IMG/VR virus record: IMGVR_UViG_3300031251_000012
Length of the DNA stretch: 20,000 nucleotides
Strand: one strand, 5' to 3'
Origin: an uncultured virus (IMG/VR IMGVR_UViG_3300031251_000012)
Lineage: Duplodnaviria > Heunggongvirae > Uroviricota > Caudoviricetes
Positions within the stretch are counted from its first letter, which is position 1, and every line of letters begins with the position of its first letter. The notes beneath the pieces were generated by a model. The model was not told the origin of the DNA and did no database searches. It saw nothing but the letters and a program-made list of their open reading frames with translations. The position numbers and the translations under genes were made by a program. Below, piece by piece: positions 1,107 through 19,770 of the stretch.

Positions 1107-1445
1107 TTATACCAATGTTAGATATTTTGCTAAGTTTTCTTTACCGTAGATTTTCTTATCATCTAATTGTGTAATGTGTTGCCCATTGATCCAATATTCT
1201 GTATGACCATTGACCCATTCTTTTGCTGGGCCGTCTTCTCTATGAAGTTCGGCTTTACCATTTATAAGGGAATAAGATCTTCTAACGCTCCTATCATAGT
1301 AATCTATGAATCCATTTTGTATGAAAATGCGAGAACTATTTCCGAATAATTCGTATAATTTTTTATTCACAATAAAACAAGTCTGGTGAATTATGTGTTT
1401 TACTGTTTGTCCAACTCTAAATAATAGATTTTGTTGCATAATCAA
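1107..1445 (-). CDS. Hypothetical protein with one LHREDGPA-type repeat and C-terminal KYLTLV tag
   Basis: LHREDGPAKEWVNGHTEYWING resembles a repeat common in large-virus proteins; ends ...LAKYLTLV*. Confidence 0.75.
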   Translation of the reverse strand: MIMQQNLLFRVGQTVKHIIHQTCFIVNKKLYELFGNSSRIFIQNGFIDYYDRSVRRSYSLINGKAELHREDGPAKEWVNGHTEYWINGQHITQLDDKKIYGKENLAKYLTLV

Positions 1446-2413
1446 TCTACTTTATACACATTAACAAGAAAACTATTACTATCAACTTCAATCTTTTTCG
1501 AATCCTTGTTGCCCCAATTATCTGGCAACAATGCAATATGATTCGCAAGTAATTCTTTTTTCAATTTATCTTTATATTTAGCAATAACATTTGCCTCTTT
1601 TGGCATACAGCAGATTTCAATCTCTACTCTATCTGTCAATTCCAATTCAAGTTCTTTTCGAACATTTTGCAATGCAGATTTCAAGTCGGCAATAAATCCT
1701 TGCTCCAACAATTCAGGAGTTAAATTAGTGTCAAGAATGATTACCCCCGACCTGTTTGATGCAGAAGCATAACCCGCTTTTGATACGAACTCAACTTCAA
1801 TATCACTCAATGTTAGATCAATATCGCACATTCTAACTGTTTCTTTATTTTCAAGCAGTTTATACAAGTTTTTCCTATCGGCAAAACTCATTTTTGCCAA
1901 TTCAGCTTTCAGTCCGTTTGCTTGCTTTCCAGCGCCACGCTTACCAAGAACTCGAAAATTAGGTTTCAATACCATATCGGTAAATTCATTTGCATTCTCA
2001 ATGAATACAACTTTCTCAACATTCAATTCATCTCCAAGAATATTAGCATATTCGTTATGTTTGCAATCAACATATACCATATAATTTTGAACTTGTTTGT
2101 CTGAATATAATACATACGCTGTGCGTAATGGCTGTCGATTACGGATCTTTACATCCGCACGAACCTTATGCCCCATCTCACACATATCGCGAATTGAACG
2201 CATACGATCAATCAATTCAAAATCAACATCGCTCAGTGGTAATTTATCTACACTGACGATAGTGAAGTTTGGATCGTTTTGATATTCCACCTGATACTCT
2301 TTGATCAGTTGTTCTGATTTATCGTCAATGGAATTGAATGACGCGAATGCTGTCCATTCCTGAACGAATCCATTATCGTTTGTTGATTTGTAGCGAACTG
2401 TGTATTCACGCAC
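1442..2413 (-). CDS. Stand-alone C-terminal region of type-2 isoleucyl-tRNA synthetase (DUF5915-like); no catalytic domain
   Basis: IleRS2 C-terminal motifs IRNRQPL, DELNVEKV, LKPNFRVLGKR, LDTNLTPELLEQG...LQNVRKELELELTDRVEI; no HIGH/KMSKS; GTG start with AAGGA SD and an in-frame stop just upstream. Confidence 0.85.
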   Translation of the reverse strand: MREYTVRYKSTNDNGFVQEWTAFASFNSIDDKSEQLIKEYQVEYQNDPNFTIVSVDKLPLSDVDFELIDRMRSIRDMCEMGHKVRADVKIRNRQPLRTAYVLYSDKQVQNYMVYVDCKHNEYANILGDELNVEKVVFIENANEFTDMVLKPNFRVLGKRGAGKQANGLKAELAKMSFADRKNLYKLLENKETVRMCDIDLTLSDIEVEFVSKAGYASASNRSGVIILDTNLTPELLEQGFIADLKSALQNVRKELELELTDRVEIEICCMPKEANVIAKYKDKLKKELLANHIALLPDNWGNKDSKKIEVDSNSFLVNVYKVD

Positions 2414-2529
2414 GGTTTTTGTTTCCTTCGATTAGCCCTGTTGCATTCCAGTCTTTACCGCTAACCCAATGCATTAGATTTGCAATACCAATTAGATTTT
2501 CTACCACGCCGGCACTACTGAATTGATCA

Positions 2530-3015
2530 TTATGCAATTGCTTTGCTAAATTGTTTATAGTCCTTATAGGACTTTGTAATCCTATTCCAAAATCCCCACG
2601 ATCTGTTTTTCCTACTACCAGTGAAAAACAATGTCCATGGACCATCATTTTCATCAATCAATTCCACTCGATGAAAATCGTTAGGCGTGAAAAAATTGAA
2701 TGACAAGGGTTTTACAAAACGACGATATACCGTATCATCTGGTGCTCTGCGTTCTTCCCAGTATCCCTTTGTCAAAACGAAACTAAATGAAAAACTCGTC
2801 GGATGGTTGTGGAGAAGATACGCATATCCTCCAACATTATCAGTAATATCAATATCAAGATCACTACTACGAAAATGATGAAGGAACAAGTTTCCCCGTT
2901 CCCTATCTTTCCATAATAGGTAATACCGTGTCAAGTATGGCTTGCCATCTGGCTTTGGAATTGTAATATTAGGAATCTTTTTAACCAATGAACCAAGCAC
3001 ACTTAGCATTATCAT
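2530..3015 (-). CDS. Cupin-like (HxH metal-binding) phage protein
   Basis: YLTRYYL...LFLHHF...LHNHP...GYWEE...FHRVEL...WTLFFTG...WGF pattern consistent with a cupin double-stranded beta-helix. Confidence 0.7.
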   Translation of the reverse strand: MIMLSVLGSLVKKIPNITIPKPDGKPYLTRYYLLWKDRERGNLFLHHFRSSDLDIDITDNVGGYAYLLHNHPTSFSFSFVLTKGYWEERRAPDDTVYRRFVKPLSFNFFTPNDFHRVELIDENDGPWTLFFTGSRKNRSWGFWNRITKSYKDYKQFSKAIA

Positions 3016-3032
3016 TCTCCATCTAAATTGTC

Positions 3033-3230
3033 GGGAACGCTGGAACCTTTACCAGTCGGCATTTAACTTATCCAGTTCTCATTCTTATAGATTACGCTTT
3101 GCAATCTACCGCGTCTGGGCACATTCAGCGGCGAATGAAAGGGATTTGTTTGCTTGCGGGCACGCCTCTATCGAGACTTTCAGATATTTTCAACTTTGGA
3201 CATTTACTTTATCTAAAAAACTCCGCTCCC
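3033..3230 (-). ncRNA. Candidate structured ncRNA or long 5' leader (~198 nt), family unassigned
   Basis: Starts at the predicted TSS of promoter 3238-3266; 5' GGGAGCG pairs with 3' CGUUCCC; several internal stems using G-U pairs on this strand. Confidence 0.6.
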
Positions 3231-3237
3231 TGTTAGT

Positions 3238-3266
3238 ATTGTAAGCATTAGCCCGACACCCGTCAA
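3238..3266 (-). promoter_or_regulatory. Sigma70-type promoter TTGACG-N17-TACAAT
   Basis: Read directly on the minus strand; the -35 overlaps the TGA of the upstream gene. Confidence 0.8.
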
Positions 3267-3772
3267 GGGGCTTTGGGATATTGTTTTTTATCTTTATTGG
3301 AACCAACTCTTGGCATTTCAACGCCGAAGATAGTTCGGTATATCGTTGCAAGACATACTTCTGAACAAGCAACTCTATTTGGTAAATCTTGTGTCTCGTA
3401 AGCCTTGTTCATATTACCAATTGGCTTTTGGCAATTGCAACATTTAGCCATACTTTTTAATGTTGTTTGTGCCCAGCGTTCAAGTTTTTCAATGTCTTTT
3501 TTATTGTGAGGATCGAATAATTGGCAGGAACCTTTGCCATCCGCATTTACAAGTGAAACGCTTTTTGTTTCATCCCAATATTTCTGATGCCACTCTTCAA
3601 TCATACGAAGCGATACATTTACTGCATCAACAGGACTAACAAGGTTTTTTTGTTCGCCACTAAACATAACTGGAAGTATATCTTTGCCAGCGAACTTAGA
3701 ACCACCACAACTAATCTCTACGAGTAGTCTATTGTCTTCATAACGTCTCTGGCGAGACACATAATAACCCAT
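3263..3772 (-). CDS. Hypothetical protein with C-terminal Cys-rich zinc-finger-like region
   Basis: CCNC...CSEVC motif. Confidence 0.75.
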   Translation of the reverse strand: MGYYVSRQRRYEDNRLLVEISCGGSKFAGKDILPVMFSGEQKNLVSPVDAVNVSLRMIEEWHQKYWDETKSVSLVNADGKGSCQLFDPHNKKDIEKLERWAQTTLKSMAKCCNCQKPIGNMNKAYETQDLPNRVACSEVCLATIYRTIFGVEMPRVGSNKDKKQYPKAP

Positions 3773-3777
3773 CGGTT

Positions 3778-4617
3778 TTACCTCAATCTCTCGAATGTTT
3801 CAATGAACCTGTTCCAATACTTATCTTCCAAGATAGTCTCGAACTCCATGTACTCGAACTCTTCCTTCAAGGAATCAAAATCAACTTCGTATTCACTAAA
3901 TTGCAACTCTTCATCCTCTATGATTTTGAATGCAACTAATTGATTATTCAATGAATAGTTTGCTCTATTCTCTACTACGGAAAGAAACTCCGCTAACTTT
4001 TCTGGATCGCTTGCAATAGCAATAGCCTTCTTCTTACTAATCAATGATGGAATGTTATCGCTTGTATCGCCATTCAATGTTAGGAATGTTAGGAAGTGAT
4101 AGTCTGGCGGAACAACATAGCCTTTTAGATTATGACTAAATACTTTTAGATTATCATAACCTTTTTGTAATAACTGAATGTAATCCTTGTCCGATGATAT
4201 AACTGTTAGATCCTCATCTTGCAATGTAGAAACTAATGTCGCAATAACATCGTCCGCTTCGTATCTATCTGATTTTACTTGGGTTATTGGAAGATATTTT
4301 AGCAACTTCAACATAATGTTGTATTGACGAAGGAAGTCATCGCGTTTCTTTTGCTTGTCTTCTGATCCTACTTTGATGATTCTGTTAGATTTATATTCGG
4401 AATATAACTCTCTTCTAAAACAATTTTCCCCTTCAAGCGCGAAGAATACTTTATCAGGATCGAATTGTTCAATCAATGCTCTGGTATTACGGAAAAAATT
4501 ATATACTGCGGCGAAACTTTCTTTATCTTCGTCTTCTGGTTTTGGCTTACCGAATGTGATATTCGCCCTATAACTAAAATTTAAACCGTCAATCAGTAAT
4601 ACTTTGTCCTTGCTCAT
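3778..4617 (-). CDS. 5'-3' exonuclease / flap endonuclease (T4 RNase H / T5 D15-like)
   Basis: LLIDG, RRELYSEYKSNR, EADDVIA, SSDKDYIQL and GDTSDNIP motifs; 279 aa stand-alone. Confidence 0.92.
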   Translation of the reverse strand: MSKDKVLLIDGLNFSYRANITFGKPKPEDEDKESFAAVYNFFRNTRALIEQFDPDKVFFALEGENCFRRELYSEYKSNRIIKVGSEDKQKKRDDFLRQYNIMLKLLKYLPITQVKSDRYEADDVIATLVSTLQDEDLTVISSDKDYIQLLQKGYDNLKVFSHNLKGYVVPPDYHFLTFLTLNGDTSDNIPSLISKKKAIAIASDPEKLAEFLSVVENRANYSLNNQLVAFKIIEDEELQFSEYEVDFDSLKEEFEYMEFETILEDKYWNRFIETFERLR

Positions 4618-4729
4618 CAGTTTTCAATCTCGAATGGTGTCGTTTTCTAACATATCCTTCAACCGACAAAATAACAATAATCAATAACGCTATGAATGCA
4701 ATCTTGTGTCGGCGAATAAAATCAATCAT
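4589..4729 (-). CDS. Small membrane protein (46 aa), not in the ORF track
   Basis: MIDFIRRHKIAFIALLIIVILSVEGYVRKRHHSRLKTDEQGQSITD; one hydrophobic helix; fills the gap between neighbours. Confidence 0.55.
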   Translation of the reverse strand: MIDFIRRHKIAFIALLIIVILSVEGYVRKRHHSRLKTDEQGQSITD

Positions 4730-4740
4730 CTAACATAATA

Positions 4741-4956
4741 CTATTTTATTGGAATATTGTCTGCCTCTTTTTTACTGACGAAGAAACTATGGCTCTTACT
4801 TTCTTTACATCTGACTAATACAACTTCTGGTTCGCATATCTCATAATCACCATCGTATGATGTCATCACATCCATACCATCCGAATCTTCGTTTGGATCA
4901 TCAAGATATAGTGATTTACATCCACAAAACGGGCACATTGTGATTTGATTTTTCAT
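4741..4956 (-). CDS. Small zinc-ribbon-like protein
   Basis: CPFCGC...C...H; AGGA SD. Confidence 0.7.
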   Translation of the reverse strand: MKNQITMCPFCGCKSLYLDDPNEDSDGMDVMTSYDGDYEICEPEVVLVRCKESKSHSFFVSKKEADNIPIK

Positions 4957-4965
4957 TTTTATCCT

Positions 4966-5181
4966 TTACATTAGCAATAGATATTTTTCAATGTCTTCTT
5001 TATATTTAGAAGCGCTTGGAACTGTCAGACATAATGTATCAATATACATTGTAATACTTGTCGGATTTATATTTCTATATATAGAATAAGCAATTTCTGC
5101 TGGGACATTCAATTCTTTTTTCTCGAACAATGCAATTGTGTCTTCCCAATTTAATCTTGCGTGTTCTTCATAATCAAGCAT
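4966..5181 (-). CDS. Small protein, family A (ExR/KxLNV...KYxxEIEKYLLLx tail)
   Basis: FEKKELNVPAEI...SKYKEDIEKYLLLM*. Confidence 0.75.
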   Translation of the reverse strand: MLDYEEHARLNWEDTIALFEKKELNVPAEIAYSIYRNINPTSITMYIDTLCLTVPSASKYKEDIEKYLLLM

Positions 5182-6591: not shown

Positions 6592-7011
6592 CTACCGTCT
6601 TACAACCAGCGCGCCCACAATAATCAATGCCATACCAATAACTTTCATCATAGTTATCTGTTCTCCGAAGAATATCGAAGTCAAAATCAATGTTATTACA
6701 ATTGGCGAAGTCATAGATATTGAATACAATGTAGCAACATTATTGCTATCACGAATAGCATATATGAATGCAAGCCCTGCCATTGTTGCAGATAGCGTTG
6801 CAAGCATTGCCCACATTGCACCAATAACATTAAATGGTTGTGCTACCTTTGTAGAAAGAATGTAGATATATATTGGTAATAATGCTATACCAACACAACA
6901 ATTCACTATATGAATTTGAAACGGATGTAGATGTCTTGTTGCCAACTTTAAAAAGAAACTCCAAAATCCATATCCAAGAATAGATATAATGATTAGGTAT
7001 TTACTATTCAT
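6592..7011 (-). CDS. EamA/DMT-family small membrane transporter (single domain)
   Basis: About five hydrophobic segments; SPIVITLILTSIFFGEQITMMKVIGMALIIVG is typical of EamA. Confidence 0.85.
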   Translation of the reverse strand: MNSKYLIIISILGYGFWSFFLKLATRHLHPFQIHIVNCCVGIALLPIYIYILSTKVAQPFNVIGAMWAMLATLSATMAGLAFIYAIRDSNNVATLYSISMTSPIVITLILTSIFFGEQITMMKVIGMALIIVGALVVRR

Positions 7012-10778: not shown

Positions 10779-12203
10779 TTATATCAGTTGCTTTTGTATT
10801 CTGTTCAATACTACTTCTTTACCCATCACTCCCATTACTTGGAATAATTCAGGGCTTTGTGTCCGACCATAAATCGCGCATCTTGTTGGTTGTCCGATCT
10901 CTTTTATAGTCATTCCATTTTGTGTTAGCCAATCATTTGTTGCCGTTCTAAGATTATTTTCCGTCCAATCATTTACGGATTGAAGGAATGTATTGAATGC
11001 GGATAGTTTTGTTTTGGCTTCTGGTGTGAGTATTTTTTCGACTGCTGATTGGTCAATGGAGATGTCGGAACGGAGAACTGGCTCTAACTCCGTTGCTGCG
11101 TCCAATAGTGTGCGGGCGCGTGTCCTCACCAGCGGTATTAGTGATGTAAGTCGTCTGGCGCAGATGTCAATGCCACGGGCTGTAATGAATGGTAGGAGGT
11201 GATCGGCATACACATTATCTGGCGTCAATGTGTTGCTTTTCAGATGTTCATAATTTATGACCGATGCCTTGACTGGATCAAACTTACCATCTTTACGAAC
11301 ACAATTTTCAAGTGAAAACTTTTCAATTAGTTCATTAATCGAAAACAATTCTTGATCTTTATAACCAAAACCAAGTCTTGCAACAATATTCAATAGAGCT
11401 TGTGGTGTATATCCTAAATCTCGAAACTGGAAAACGCTTGCAGCACCATCGCGCTTCGATAACTTGGATCCTGATTGTGATAGAATGAGGGGGAGATGTC
11501 CTTGAATAGGTGGTTCCCACCCGAACGCTTGATATAGCATCAGTTGGCAATTTGCATTAACCATATGTTCGCGTCCGCGAATAATATGAGTTATTTCCAT
11601 TAGATGGTCATCAATAGTCGCACCAAAATTATACATTGCTTGACCATCAGATCGTATAATTATGAAGTCCTGATTTTCAAAATTAGGTGTGCGCACTGTC
11701 TTGAACACCTGATCATCATATTCAATATGACCATCAAGCGGAGCCTTAAATCTAATTACATAATTTTTAGTTCGATCGTATCCTTTGTCAATGCAGGTTC
11801 GTGGATATTTGAATACTGATTTTGGATTATTGGCTTCTATTTCTTTTCGTTGTCGATCTAATTCTTCTGGTGTGCAATAACAACGATATGCTTTACCTTC
11901 TTTGATTAATTGTTCTGCATAATGCTTGTAAATATCTTTGCGCTCGCTTTGACGATACGGAACATCATTGCTTACGCCAATACCTTGTTGCCAATCTAAC
12001 CCGAGCCAACGAAGACTATCGAGAATTGTATTTTCGCTTGCGTCCGATGATCTTTTTTGATCTGTGTCCTCGACCCTTACCAAGAAAATCCCATTGTGTT
12101 TCTTTGCAAGTAGCCAATTATATAGGGCTGTTCTAGCCCCGCCAATATGTAATGAACCGCTCGGACTTGGAGAAAATCTTGTCTTCATTAGTTTTTCTTT
12201 CAT
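10779..12203 (-). CDS. gltX: Glutamate--tRNA ligase (glutamyl-tRNA synthetase)
   Basis: RFSPSPSGSLHIGG (HIGH), RVEDTD, AYRCYC, ITHIIRG, KLSKR (KMSKS); full length with anticodon-binding domain. Confidence 0.96.
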   Translation of the reverse strand: MKEKLMKTRFSPSPSGSLHIGGARTALYNWLLAKKHNGIFLVRVEDTDQKRSSDASENTILDSLRWLGLDWQQGIGVSNDVPYRQSERKDIYKHYAEQLIKEGKAYRCYCTPEELDRQRKEIEANNPKSVFKYPRTCIDKGYDRTKNYVIRFKAPLDGHIEYDDQVFKTVRTPNFENQDFIIIRSDGQAMYNFGATIDDHLMEITHIIRGREHMVNANCQLMLYQAFGWEPPIQGHLPLILSQSGSKLSKRDGAASVFQFRDLGYTPQALLNIVARLGFGYKDQELFSINELIEKFSLENCVRKDGKFDPVKASVINYEHLKSNTLTPDNVYADHLLPFITARGIDICARRLTSLIPLVRTRARTLLDAATELEPVLRSDISIDQSAVEKILTPEAKTKLSAFNTFLQSVNDWTENNLRTATNDWLTQNGMTIKEIGQPTRCAIYGRTQSPELFQVMGVMGKEVVLNRIQKQLI

Positions 12204-14714: not shown

Positions 14715-15554
14715 TTAGAAACCTATACACTGTGCTGTTGGCAGTCGGGCTTTCATAATTTTGACTGCGTCGGGGTTATTATCTATCATTACATAACCAC
14801 GATTATTATTCTCTGCTGATTGCCCAAGGGAACCGCTTCCAGCAAAAAAATCTAATACTATATCACCTTCATTAGAATGAACTTTGACTATACGATCTAA
14901 AACACCAAGTGGCTTCTGCGTTGGGTAATTTTGCTTTTCCTTACCCATTGTTGGAACGATTGTTTTGAACCAAACATCTGTTGGAGTTTTACCACGCTCT
15001 GCTTTTTCTTTTCCCACAAGTCCGGGCGCGAGATATGGAATACGATCCATTGCATCAAAATTGAAAACATATCCGCCTTTATTTGGATTCATCGCATAAA
15101 ATAAAATCGTGTCGTGTTTTGCTGGCCATTTACTTTTTGATCTGGCTCCGTAGTCATAAGCCCATATTAATTCATTGACAAACCTATGGCGTCCGAGCAT
15201 CTTGTCCAATGCAACCTTGATATAATGAACTTCTCTGTAATCTAAATGGACGAACAATGCTCCGTTGTCTGTTAGACAATGCAATGATGCTTCTATGCGT
15301 GGCATAAGGAATGCTGGGAAGTCATCGAACTTATCGTTGTAGATATTTGATGAGCCTTCTGCTTCTGTTGTTATGAATTGTTTTCCAGCGAATCCTGTTC
15401 GATCGCCTTCGCCATCTGTTGCTTTGACTTTTATTCTTTTGCGTTGTTGAACTTTTCCAGTCGAGAACGGACTATCGATGTAGATTAGTCGTGCAAAATT
15501 ATTAGGAAGTGTCGGTAGCACTTCGAGATTATCACCGAGAATTATTTGTTTCAT
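14715..15554 (-). CDS. DNA amino-methyltransferase (N6A/N4C), beta class
   Basis: GDNL, LIYIDSPF (motif IV variant), YPTQKP, VLDFFAGSGS (motif I) in beta order. Confidence 0.92.
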   Translation of the reverse strand: MKQIILGDNLEVLPTLPNNFARLIYIDSPFSTGKVQQRKRIKVKATDGEGDRTGFAGKQFITTEAEGSSNIYNDKFDDFPAFLMPRIEASLHCLTDNGALFVHLDYREVHYIKVALDKMLGRHRFVNELIWAYDYGARSKSKWPAKHDTILFYAMNPNKGGYVFNFDAMDRIPYLAPGLVGKEKAERGKTPTDVWFKTIVPTMGKEKQNYPTQKPLGVLDRIVKVHSNEGDIVLDFFAGSGSLGQSAENNNRGYVMIDNNPDAVKIMKARLPTAQCIGF

Positions 15555-17764: not shown

Positions 17765-18070
17765 TTAGATTAGTAAAAGATATTTATCTACTTCTTTGGA
17801 ATATTTATGATATTGTAATATCTGGCATTTGATATCATTGACGGCATCGCTCAATGATATATTCGGATATTTATTTTTGAACCATCTAAATCCAAGCGCT
17901 AAATTATGTGCAACATTTAGATTTCTTATCTCATATACATCAATAATATGTATTGTTAGACTAAATCTTACTGCACCATAACAATATGCGTTTCCACCTG
18001 TGTCTTCAAAATCGTCATCTATAATTGTGTAAATATCTTGTTGAACATCGCGAGAATAAGACCTAAACAT
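17765..18070 (-). CDS. Small protein, family A, C-terminal DKYLLLI tag
   Basis: TIIDDDF...YEIRNLNVAHNLALGFRWF...HKYSKEVDKYLLLI*. Confidence 0.8.
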   Translation of the reverse strand: MFRSYSRDVQQDIYTIIDDDFEDTGGNAYCYGAVRFSLTIHIIDVYEIRNLNVAHNLALGFRWFKNKYPNISLSDAVNDIKCQILQYHKYSKEVDKYLLLI

Positions 18071-19085
18071 TGTTCAATCTTTTTACAACTTCAATCAATA
18101 CTTCTTTTTCGACTGCAAGGTTCATCCTAATATAACCATCTTGTCCGCCGAAGTGTTTCCCATCCGCAACATTCACTTTGGCTTTCTCAAAAACATCTGG
18201 ACGCAAACATTTTGACCATAGGAACATCCCCGGCACATCAACAATATCCTCTGGCACATCAAGAATATCTTTACGAATAGATTTGATTATGGTCTTGTTT
18301 TCAATTAGTCCTTCTTGACATCGTTGAATAAAAACATCATATGTTTCTTTTTGTTCGAGGTCGGTTAGCAATTCAAGAACAATGCTTTGACTAATTGTTG
18401 ATACACCAACTGTCATCATTTCAATATATTCTTGGATCAGGTGGTAGAACTCGGGATTATTGCAAACTGCTATTCCAACGCGAAGTCCTGATAATCCTAA
18501 CCCCTTGCTAATAGAATATATCTGCACATCACCTAATGATCCGAACCCTTCATATTTAGGAAAATATATTGGTGAGTTATATACCTCATCTAATATAAAC
18601 GGAATATCGAGATCTTTATGCCAATACGCTAAATGCTTTGCTTGTTCAGCGGTTATCATATACCCATCTGGATTTCTTGGTAAAACCGCAAGATATGCAT
18701 TATAATCACTTTGATCGCTAACTTGTTCAAGATTGTGGGCTTGAATAATTGGGGGTAATAAACACCAATAAGGTGATGATAGTCCTAATTTTTTTTTACC
18801 TAATTTATTTAAAGCGTAGAACACCGCCCCCAAGCAATTTTTTGCTCCATTACATATAACTACTGGTGCTTGGTATTTATTTTCTAAAAACTTTACCAAT
18901 GGCGGGTAGCCAGTAGGCTGTTGATATTCACACTTGTTATTTGAATATAAATCAATATTTAATTGATTTTGAGATCGATATAAATCTAGTGTGGTAAATA
19001 GAGCATCACGAACTATACGCGCTTCACCAACGGCGAGATCAATAGTACCATCAAAAAAATTATTTTTAACTAGAAAATTATTCAT
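18063..19085 (-). CDS. PLP-dependent aminotransferase, class I/II
   Basis: NPDG, ILDEVY, SISKGLGLSGLRVG (PLP lysine), YIRMN. Confidence 0.92.
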   Translation of the reverse strand: MNNFLVKNNFFDGTIDLAVGEARIVRDALFTTLDLYRSQNQLNIDLYSNNKCEYQQPTGYPPLVKFLENKYQAPVVICNGAKNCLGAVFYALNKLGKKKLGLSSPYWCLLPPIIQAHNLEQVSDQSDYNAYLAVLPRNPDGYMITAEQAKHLAYWHKDLDIPFILDEVYNSPIYFPKYEGFGSLGDVQIYSISKGLGLSGLRVGIAVCNNPEFYHLIQEYIEMMTVGVSTISQSIVLELLTDLEQKETYDVFIQRCQEGLIENKTIIKSIRKDILDVPEDIVDVPGMFLWSKCLRPDVFEKAKVNVADGKHFGGQDGYIRMNLAVEKEVLIEVVKRLNNV

Positions 19086-19104: not shown

Positions 19105-19770
19105 ATGATTACTATCTATAAAATTACCTGCCTCGTAAATAAAAAAATCTACATTGGGCAAACTAAAAATAAAATTGAAAAAAGGCTTAACTATCATAAA
19201 TGGTCTGCCAGACGGCAAAAAATGAGTTGCCCTAAATTAGAAAAGGCTATAAATTATTATGGTGCAGATAATTTTGTTATTGAACAATTGGCTAATACTG
19301 AAACTCGCGAAGAAGCCGATCTTCTTGAAGAAGAATACATATCAAAATATGATAGTATCAAACTTGGATATAATATACAATCGGGCGGAACCGGTGGTAA
19401 TAGAGTTATTGTTGGATCTAAAAACCCCAATGCTAAACTAACTGATCAACAAGTAAATGAGATACGGATATTGCTTGACAATAAATCTATAAAACAAAAA
19501 GATATAGCAGATAAGTATGATGTTCATACAACTACTATTCAGCGAATATCATATAATGTTGGCTGGCACGAAAATGATATCAAGCCAACACGCAGAAAAC
19601 AACGCTCCATAAAAAAATGGACTACACTCACTGAGGAAAAGGTAAAAGAGATAAAAACACTTTTGAAAGAAGAAAAGATGGATATAATTGATATAGCCAA
19701 TCTATATGGCGTATGCTACGCTAGTATTTCACACATCAAAAATGAACGCACTTGGAAACATGTTAAATAA
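19105..19770 (+). CDS. Free-standing GIY-YIG (homing-type) endonuclease with duplicated C-terminal HTH-like modules
   Basis: IYKIT...IYIGQT, GYN; two repeats LTDQQVNEIR...IADKYDV and LTEEKVKEIK...IANLYGV. Confidence 0.9.
   Translation: MITIYKITCLVNKKIYIGQTKNKIEKRLNYHKWSARRQKMSCPKLEKAINYYGADNFVIEQLANTETREEADLLEEEYISKYDSIKLGYNIQSGGTGGNRVIVGSKNPNAKLTDQQVNEIRILLDNKSIKQKDIADKYDVHTTTIQRISYNVGWHENDIKPTRRKQRSIKKWTTLTEEKVKEIKTLLKEEKMDIIDIANLYGVCYASISHIKNERTWKHVK

Follow-up and report, generated by a model that had tools for sequence, protein, structure and literature searches.

A probable lineage-specific structured RNA, outside the recognised families, at the head of a jumbo-phage operon

Structured RNAs near phage and bacterial genes are described in several settings. 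Protein-binding messenger RNA (mRNA) leaders include the E. coli thrS operator, the ribosomal-protein leaders and the operators of T4 gene 32 and gene 43; HK022 putL and putR and lambda nut are phage promoter-proximal RNAs that act in cis; and the small stable RNAs of T4 serve as comparators for tRNA-like stable RNAs. The element considered here lies on the minus strand of a 20,000-nucleotide (nt) stretch of DNA (the window), which comprises bases 25336-45335 of a 157-kb IMG/VR virus record (IMGVR_UViG_3300031251_000012, G000; 38% G+C, estimated completeness 32%, 5 tRNA genes). It is a 199-nt module that would begin at the start point of a sigma-70-type promoter, close on itself through its two ends and stop just short of the ribosome-binding site (RBS) of a cupin-like gene. 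Judged by comparison with a relative, it is probably a real, unclassified, lineage-specific structured RNA that heads an operon of a jumbo phage.

The comparison rests on a 406-kb record (IMGVR_UViG_3300044797_000098, G001; 95% complete) that has the same gene order and holds the sole full homologue. This locus, L009, was reached through the 169-amino-acid (aa) protein encoded upstream of the RNA; its intergenic region is 84% identical to that of the window (blastn, 226 columns), and each of the two phage records carries a single copy of the module. From these two full sequences RNAalifold derives a model of 56 pairs, 14 of them changed on both sides with pairing kept. In an independent count all 112 cells are standard pairs, and each of the 17 pairs that vary stays paired (14 by double change, 3 via G-U). 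With shuffled partners the double changes number 7.0 ± 2.0 and stay below 14 in all 500 shuffles; when partners are slid by 1-3 columns, 0-1 double changes and 33-47% pairing are left. The helices P1, P2, P6, P7, P8 and P9 (listed below) also appear in each single-sequence fold, independently of the alignment. A conserved multi-helix RNA fold in the two sequences is well supported by this comparison, and the multi-stem RNA that a preliminary description had proposed from the letters of the window finds its compensatory changes in the homologue (14 double, against 7.0 ± 2.0 in shuffles). Thermodynamics alone is equivocal: the 199-nt RNA (3231..3033) folds at -55.5 kcal/mol with z = -3.0, a stability matched by 0 of 200 shuffles but flattered by the choice of ends that pair, while the whole 247-nt spacer reaches only z = -1.1. 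The comparative evidence is decisive.

In the proposed fold P1 would pair the 5' and 3' ends and enclose three arms. The first would be P1a-P2, whose stem top and loop carry a 24-nt invariant block; the second a long inner P3-P5/P6, branching into P7 and P8; the third P9, stacked against P1. The parts are as follows.

3033..3231, minus strand: structured RNA module of 199 nt; it runs from A3231/G3230, the predicted +1, to the final base of P1.
3033..3230, minus strand: P1, closing stem of 7 base pairs (bp), GGGAGCG 3230..3224 with CGUUCCC 3039..3033.
3173..3223, minus strand: P1a, 3 bp, closing the P2 arm, GAG 3223..3221 with CUC 3175..3173; one double change (G-C to U-A).
3179..3217, minus strand: P2, 8 bp, UUUAGAUA 3217..3210 with UAUCUGAA 3186..3179.
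3188..3211, minus strand: 24-nt invariant block UAAAGUAAAUGUCCAAAGUUGAAA, the top of P2 and a large apical loop; the longest identical run of the element.
3152..3169, minus strand: 18-nt invariant block AGAGGCGUGCCCGCAAGC, identical between the window and L009.
3058..3166, minus strand: P3, long-range, 5 bp, GGCGU 3166..3162 with AUGCC 3062..3058.
3077..3140, minus strand: P6, 8 bp, UUUCAUUC 3140..3133 with GAAUGAGA 3084..3077; one double change (U-A to C-G) and one single.
3108..3132, minus strand: P7, GCCGCU 3132..3127 with ACGCGGU 3114..3108, its loop carrying GAAUGUGCCC; one single change (C-G to U-G).
3089..3107, minus strand: P8 hairpin, AGAUUGC 3107..3101, loop AAAGC, GUAAUCU 3095..3089; three double changes.
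3040..3055, minus strand: P9 hairpin, CUGG 3055..3052, loop UAAAGGUU, CCAG 3043..3040; directly abutting the 3' strand of P1.
3070..3201, minus strand: candidate pseudoknot, 5 bp, GUCCA 3201..3197 with UGGAU 3074..3070; in competition with P5 (UCC 3144..3142 with GGA 3073..3071).
3164..3177, minus strand: hairpin GUCUC-GAUA-GAGGC, window only, overlapping P1a and P3.

The module starts about 7 nt past the promoter -10 element and is richer in G+C than the window as a whole (44% versus 36%). Its first and last 7 nt pair: P1 begins 1-2 nt past the predicted +1 and ends 12 nt before the Shine-Dalgarno sequence (about 10 nt in L009). This closing stem lies where the preliminary description had drawn it; it reads GGGAAUG/CAUUCCC in L009, where a double change has replaced C-G by U-A and a single change G-U by A-U, with pairing kept. 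P1a, being short, is weakly supported. P2, an 8-bp stem that with its 24-nt invariant block was missing from the earlier list of helices, shows four double changes in the alignment, which depend on gap placement, and is predicted independently in both single-sequence folds. P3 appears in the RNAalifold model and in the window fold and is absent from the L009 single-sequence fold; its pairs are 5/5 invariant, so that covariation is uninformative. The helices already recognised as UUUCAUUC/GAAUGAGA, GCCGC/GCGGU and AGAUUGC-AAAGC-GUAAUCU are present and kept in L009 with, respectively, 1, 0 and 3 double and 1, 1 and 0 single changes. In P9 all four counted pairs are changed on both sides (ACCACA-AAAG-UGUGGU in L009), the loop not being conserved.

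Two other pairings of the preliminary description fare less well. The hairpin GUCUC-GAUA-GAGGC can be drawn in the window but is absent from L009, which has CCAAUCAUCAGAGGC at that place, and in the consensus its bases belong to P1a and P3. UGUCCA/UGGAUA is compatible with both sequences but cannot nest with P2, and may instead form a pseudoknot or compete with P5; as a candidate pseudoknot it is paired in 10/10 cells of the two sequences, with a single one-sided change (G-U to G-C). GUGCCC within AGAGGCGUGCCCGCAAGC recurs at 3122..3117 within a second invariant block, GCUGAAUGUGCCC. The two copies (3117-3122 and 3156-3161, minus strand) stand in invariant single-stranded contexts, GCGUGCCCGCAAGC and AUGUGCCCAGACGC, the latter being AUGUGCCCGAAGC in L009, and the pair may be a repeated recognition motif. 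UGUCGGG in the promoter spacer (3258..3252) is perfectly complementary to CCCGACA (3035..3029), which overlaps the end of P1, and the pairing is seen in the whole-spacer fold; transcripts reading through from upstream could use it to lengthen the closing stem. As part of the conserved fold this outer stem is rejected: it is not kept in L009, which has CCCGCAA.

The 24-nt block deserves separate mention, as it holds a 7-codon micro-ORF (open reading frame) running from AUG 3203..3201 to UGA 3182..3180 without a Shine-Dalgarno sequence. Translation of this frame (MSKVENI; MSKVER in L009) in the P2 loop would remodel P2 and so provide control by a leader peptide. The AUG and an in-frame stop are kept in both phages, the stop lying in the 3' strand of P2, and an unrelated contig has the identical 23 nt at the start of a genuine gene. 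Nonetheless, leader-peptide control is highly improbable: other genes here do have a Shine-Dalgarno sequence, the block is identical at all codon positions and so bears no sign of selection at the protein level, and stop codons are frequent in A/U-rich sequence.

Constraint on the runs of the RNA is comparable to that on conserved protein segments and is not exceptional. Runs of 24, 18, 13, 12, 12 and 9 nt are identical between the window and L009, while synonymous third positions of the flanking genes are 60% identical downstream (82% amino-acid identity) and 66% identical upstream (76%). The earlier remark that no convincing ORF crosses the RNA holds, since the phages share no open frame: 2 antisense frames are free of stops in the window, and every frame of L009 has at least 2. 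Insertions and deletions in the RNA region are not multiples of three. Three lines taken jointly, namely the promoter, the direction of the genes and the conserved G-U pairs, assign the RNA to the minus strand. G-U fills 12 of the 112 cells, each of which would turn into an A-C mismatch in the complement, and four pairs are G-U in both phages.

Several observations weigh against this account of the fold. It comes from two full sequences only, the same two from which the fold was derived, and the double changes of P2 are gap-dependent; P3, P5 and two small hairpins or mini-helices are invariant, hence without a covariation signal; and the coding flanks also hold identical runs of 26, 26, 20 and 20 nt. 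The claim that the G-U pairs work on one strand only is borne out in the window (sense z = -3.0 versus antisense z = -0.45) but not in L009, where the antisense strand folds as well as the sense (z = -3.5 versus -3.4). With only two sequences, equal folding of the L009 strands and similar identical runs in the coding flanks, the likeness of the two spacers might be put down to recent common ancestry, or to a signal at the level of DNA such as a protein-binding site or an extended promoter. Such an absence of RNA function is very unlikely, however: retention of pairing at 17 of 17 variable pairs is not predicted by constraint on DNA, and divergence at nearby neutral sites is about 35-40%.

Known RNA families offer no home for the element. 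None of the 4227 families of Rfam 15 matches the window at the gathering score or the stretch 2900..3400 at E ≤ 10, and the L009 copy has only an unrelated match at E = 6.8 outside the element; the earlier impression that no family is recognised thus survives the Rfam check, with 0 matches in the window element and none relevant in L009. A T-box leader is not supported, there being no Rfam match to it at E ≤ 10 in either phage and, by eye, no conserved UGGN bulge, the T-box motif; the UGGU of the P9 loop is found in the window only. Y RNA (YrlA) is set aside as well: it has no Rfam match, and PF05731 (TROVE/Ro60) has no match in either of the two records, the control being positive in 2 genomes. 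So is a retron msr-msd, the reverse transcriptase family PF00078 being without a match in both records and among the 42 window proteins compared with Pfam.

The preliminary description had also offered a tRNA mimic or a 6S-like decoy of RNA polymerase. The topology that prompted the former is real: P1 has the 7 bp of an acceptor stem, and P9 abuts the 3' strand without a spacer in both phages, as a T-arm would. The hairpin CUGG-UAAAGGUU-CCAG is thus present and adjoins the closing stem, but its likeness to a T-arm ends there, with no conserved 7-nt T-loop (UAAAGGUU in the window against AAAG in L009) and a stem of 4 bp versus 6 bp. The 3' tails, GACA in the window and GCAA in L009, are not NCCA. 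ARAGORN finds 0 tRNA or tmRNA genes in the 20-kb window (the same tool finds 5 tRNAs elsewhere in the genome), Rfam has no such match at E ≤ 10, and the module shows no similarity to the 5 phage tRNAs. As to 6S RNA, the model has 4 branch points where that family would show a rod opened by a central bubble, and no Rfam 6S match is found. These results leave either kind of mimic barely credible.

A metabolite or ion riboswitch of a new class, controlling the cupin/Nudix operon, has more in its favour. A multi-way junction closed by P1, covarying stems, invariant nucleotides in junctions and loops and a place in the 5' untranslated region (UTR) directly before the RBS are all part of riboswitch anatomy, and all are found here. 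Against these stand the lack of any Rfam aptamer match at E ≤ 10 in either phage, so that no known class is recognised; the lack of a conserved expression platform, with neither a terminator-like site between P1 and the start codon nor a conserved pairing that would sequester the Shine-Dalgarno sequence (window and L009); and confinement to one rare phage lineage, the scan of species genomes being weakly negative. On balance a riboswitch is unlikely.

The promoter and the start of the first gene frame the module.

3238..3270, minus strand: sigma-70-type promoter, CCCC 3270..3267, -35 TTGACG 3266..3261, 17-nt spacer, -10 TACAAT 3243..3238.
3007..3032, minus strand: A/U-rich linker 3032..3021, Shine-Dalgarno GGAGA 3020..3016 and start of the cupin-like gene.

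The promoter TTGACG-17-TACAAT is where it had been placed, and its hexamers are kept in L009, as are the CCCC and most of the spacer. The stop codon of the upstream gene, TGA (3265..3263), lies inside the -35 hexamer. In a promoter scan it scores 10/12 matches and is one of the two top scorers among 8 sites in 2000..5000; promoter-like sites as such are not enriched there (8 versus 11.1 ± 3.8 in shuffles). Matches to CCCTTGAC-N16-18-TANAAT number 2 + 2 in the two phage records, each reading in the sense of the genes, against 0 in a reversed control, while the motif CCCCTTGAC has 3 occurrences in 157 kb, all intergenic and all gene-sense. Conservation in L009 and membership of this motif family make the promoter credible. 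Two further promoters of the form CCCCTTGAC-N17-TAnAAT/TAnACT lie outside the window, at G000:C1:108634 and 150079 (-), one directly after tRNA-Asn and the other after a terminator-like hairpin, and CCCCTTGAC-type sites suggest a small set of strong host-type promoters. Both of the others reach an RBS and ATG within about 35-45 nt; against leaders that short from promoters of the same type, the 199 nt that here separate +1 from the RBS have the look of an inserted module.

Window genes are almost all on the minus strand, abutting or overlapping, and the RNA occupies a 247-nt intergenic gap, 3262..3016 (minus strand). Upstream is the 169-aa gene (3772..3263, minus strand), of no known family, and upstream too lies a 5'-3' exonuclease. 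The first downstream gene (161 aa, listed start 3015) matches PHROG 4786, 'cysteine dioxygenase' (a cupin-type family), at E 1.7e-22; comparison with L009 puts its start at ATG 3009..3007, an in-frame ATG being present also at 3015..3013. Further along comes a 323-aa protein (1442-2413, minus strand) in which residues 124-321 match DUF5915 and residues 63-295 match residues 784-1007 of isoleucyl-tRNA synthetase (IleRS) chains in the PDB (E 1e-17), and a NUDIX protein is encoded on the same strand; the operon also encodes an 83-aa and a 112-aa protein. These PHROG, Pfam and PDB matches agree with the earlier view that the RNA heads a run of cupin, IleRS-fragment and Nudix genes. The IleRS-C-terminal protein of L009 (4463-5452, plus strand) is 81% identical to the window copy, and the IleRS catalytic domain (PF00133) is found in neither phage record, one of them 95% complete. 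By these matches the 323-aa protein is an orphan tRNA-binding domain (the anticodon-binding or C-terminal region of a type-2 IleRS) and not a gene fragment. The phage carries a tRNA-Ile(UAU), at G000:C1:46753-46828 (minus strand), about 1.4 kb past the window end, which reads AUA without lysidine; as 1 of 5 phage tRNAs it is notable beside an orphan IleRS anticodon-binding protein. A full-length class I aminoacyl-tRNA synthetase of the Glu/Gln type (474 aa; 10779-12203, minus strand) has both a catalytic domain (E 2e-90) and an anticodon-binding domain.

The promoter is followed by no fewer than 8 overlapping genes in the same orientation, and the module is the first RNA made from it. A promoter-proximal position at the head of a long operon is what an RNA acting on the transcribing polymerase would have, with read-through of the operon as the outcome; comparable phage elements for processive antitermination exist (HK022 put, EAR). 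By analogy the element might belong with them, yet Rfam gives no match to EAR or others, put is about one third of its size, and terminator-like sites downstream are not enriched (3 versus 1.6 ± 1.3 expected). Antitermination is quite unlikely.

A cis-acting leader that binds a factor and so sets ribosome access or the stability of the mRNA 5' end is the reading put forward here, tentatively and at a little under an even chance; the regulatory leader, which the preliminary description had given as an alternative, is thereby ranked first. In this model transcription from the sigma-70-type phage promoter would give the module as the first ~199 nt of the cupin-like / IleRS-C-terminal / Nudix operon mRNA. 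Because no terminator-like site separates P1 from the start codon, the RNA is at least the 5' leader of that mRNA. The module would act as a self-contained platform for a trans factor, more probably a protein than a small ligand, the obvious candidate being the tRNA-binding IleRS fragment encoded three genes downstream. With P1 and P9 some 12 nt upstream of the Shine-Dalgarno sequence, the occupied or folded module could set ribosome access or the stability of the 5' end of the operon mRNA. The linker between module and RBS differs in sequence and length among the window, L009 and a third variant (X23, below); because it varies while the module is kept, a self-contained binding module fits better than a switch that pairs with the linker. 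Two things rank a protein above a small ligand: the restriction of the element to a single phage lineage, and the presence in the operon of an orphan IleRS tRNA-binding domain kept in both phages. The regulatory role, the binding of a factor and the identity of that factor are all things we infer.

Two results pull the other way. No conserved alternative pairing hides the RBS, which pairs with different downstream coding bases in each phage; and no anticodon loop like that of tRNA-Ile is seen by eye, nor any similarity to the phage tRNA-Ile. An anticodon mimic of the thrS type is rejected: by eye the conserved hairpins hold no 7-nt NAU loop, and the score against tRNA-Ile(UAU) is 13 versus a shuffled mean of 14.6. 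With neither an anticodon-like loop nor similarity to tRNA-Ile, autoregulation in the manner of thrS is without direct support.

The same anatomy would suit a stable noncoding RNA (ncRNA), cut from the 5' end of the operon transcript, for instance in the A/U-rich linker, and acting in trans as a ribonucleoprotein (RNP) scaffold, decoy or sponge. This is possible, if clearly less probable than a cis-acting leader. The ends are sealed by P1 from +1/+2 and P9 is stacked on it, a compact shape that resists exonucleases, as stable RNAs typically have; invariant blocks take in about half of the unpaired bases; and the linker past P1 is A/U-rich and variable. In packed phage genomes, moreover, tRNAs and other stable RNAs often lack terminators of their own and are released by processing. 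On the other side, neither a terminator nor a recognisable processing signal is found, neither record encodes a partner such as Ro60/TROVE, and the 157-kb record holds elsewhere no exact complement of at least 10-11 nt to the invariant blocks (exact matches, phage record only). A more specific version is doubtful. In it the ~199-nt RNA, once freed, would join an operon product, foremost the orphan IleRS domain, in an RNP peculiar to the phage and act on host or phage tRNA-Ile or on translation; the tRNA-Ile(UAU) and full GluRS-type enzyme of the phage are its context.

To return to the cis-acting leader and the evidence that its module is kept, X23, the one such variant among contigs of 4 DNA runs, comes from a soil run and has 78 differences and 7 gaps over 686 nt. 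Among the differences listed, 35 fall in the coding stretch 2845..3011 and two in the RNA stretch 3033..3105: A3085 to U, in a junction, and A3105 to G, which keeps its P8 pair as G-U with U3091. X23 stands outside the alignment, the covariation counts being those of the window and L009, and offers partial support for a kept fold.

The search for relatives comprised eight viral-contig scans, one metagenome scan, one species-genome scan and three GenBank phage searches, and found only G001, three window-identical contigs and chance matches; the pattern scans demand 15-27 exact bases, and distant members could escape them. Patterns from four invariant blocks gave 85, 2, 1 and 5 stretches in viral contigs. 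Among the 85, extended blastn similarity is found only in G001; one of the 2 is a chance match inside a coding region; and 4 of the 5 are not confirmed by the covariance model, one of them, L111, reaching 6.2 bits (E 1.1) with a different hairpin. The protein-guided scans used the upstream protein, the cupin, the IleRS fragment and the 5'-3' exonuclease; that with the cupin returned 7 loci at 29% identity, none with a model match. A 20-mer scan of metagenomes found 5 contigs, 3 of them 100% identical to the window over 260 nt and 2 with chance 23-nt matches. In the unrelated metagenome contig L100/L102 (2999-3021, plus strand) the 23-nt match to the P2 loop block is a stop/start junction (TAA ATG TCC AAA GTT GAA); it is most likely due to chance and shows that the loop resembles a translation initiation region. 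A two-block pattern gave 3 matches in 185,579 species genomes, 0 of them confirmed by the model, a weak negative in that 21 exact bases were required. In GenBank phages, blastn with 1.6 kb found no match; tblastn found the IleRS fragment in 3 distant records (28-32% identity) and the cupin in 33, all below 60% identity and mostly mycobacteriophages.

A literature search found no published RNA upstream of these genes and 'DUF5915' in 0 papers. The IMG/VR screen for intergenic csRNAs (candidate structured RNAs) kept only models matching at least 3 unique regions (Fremin, Bhatt and Kyrpides 2023, PMC10690425). The contig identifier of the relative does not occur in the 6 supplementary files of PMC10690425 that were searched, and the element is likely to be absent from that catalogue, as far as those files represent it.

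Elsewhere in the window, the 221-aa product of 19105-19770 (plus strand) combines GIY-YIG with a helix-turn-helix and is probably a homing endonuclease, the sole Pfam-supported plus-strand gene. The 139-aa protein at 6592-7011 (minus strand) has one EamA transporter domain, where transporters of this kind usually have two. An N6/N4 DNA methylase (14715-15554, minus strand) and a class I/II aminotransferase, alliinase-like (18063-19085, minus strand), lie among small genes that are otherwise unannotated.

How huge phages control their many translation-related genes is essentially unknown. Here a compact ~200-nt RNA with a defined promoter, helices supported by covariation and no known family precedes an operon with an orphan synthetase anticodon-binding domain. 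As a regulatory leader it would give entry to gene control in uncultured jumbo phages; as a stable RNP RNA or a riboswitch it would represent a new RNA class, the riboswitch one found so far only in huge soil phages; and an RNP with the orphan IleRS domain, if real, would be a new particle for translation takeover or anti-defence. Promoter, leader and candidate protein partners are all testable in a laboratory host without the phage.

How the element stands to described systems can now be set out. With tRNA, the tRNA-like domain of tmRNA and the T4 small stable RNAs it shares a 7-bp terminal stem and a hairpin directly before the 3' strand, but it has no T-loop, cloverleaf, CCA-like tail, ARAGORN or Rfam match, or similarity to the phage tRNAs. 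Like HK022 put, lambda nut and EAR it would be the first RNA from a strong promoter of a long phage operon; it is much larger than these, has no match to EAR and no enrichment of terminators downstream, and an effect on polymerase is putative. The aptamers of the lysine and cobalamin riboswitches likewise have a P1 that joins the ends, covarying stems, invariant junctions and loops and a 5' UTR position; unlike them, the element has no Rfam match and no platform that terminates transcription or sequesters the Shine-Dalgarno sequence, and it is known from two phage records and one partial variant. It resembles the csRNAs of Fremin et al. 2023 (PMC10690425) in data source and as a covarying intergenic motif upstream of a phage gene; that screen needs at least 3 unique regions, whereas this element is found in two within IMG/VR. 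From the protein-binding leaders it differs in being larger than most operators (~200 nt, at least 7 helices), in having no tRNA-Ile-like arm and no homology to Rfam leaders, and in that binding is putative; what it has in common with them is a structured 5' leader directly before the RBS, in an operon one of whose own products binds RNA, here the stand-alone anticodon-binding region of IleRS.

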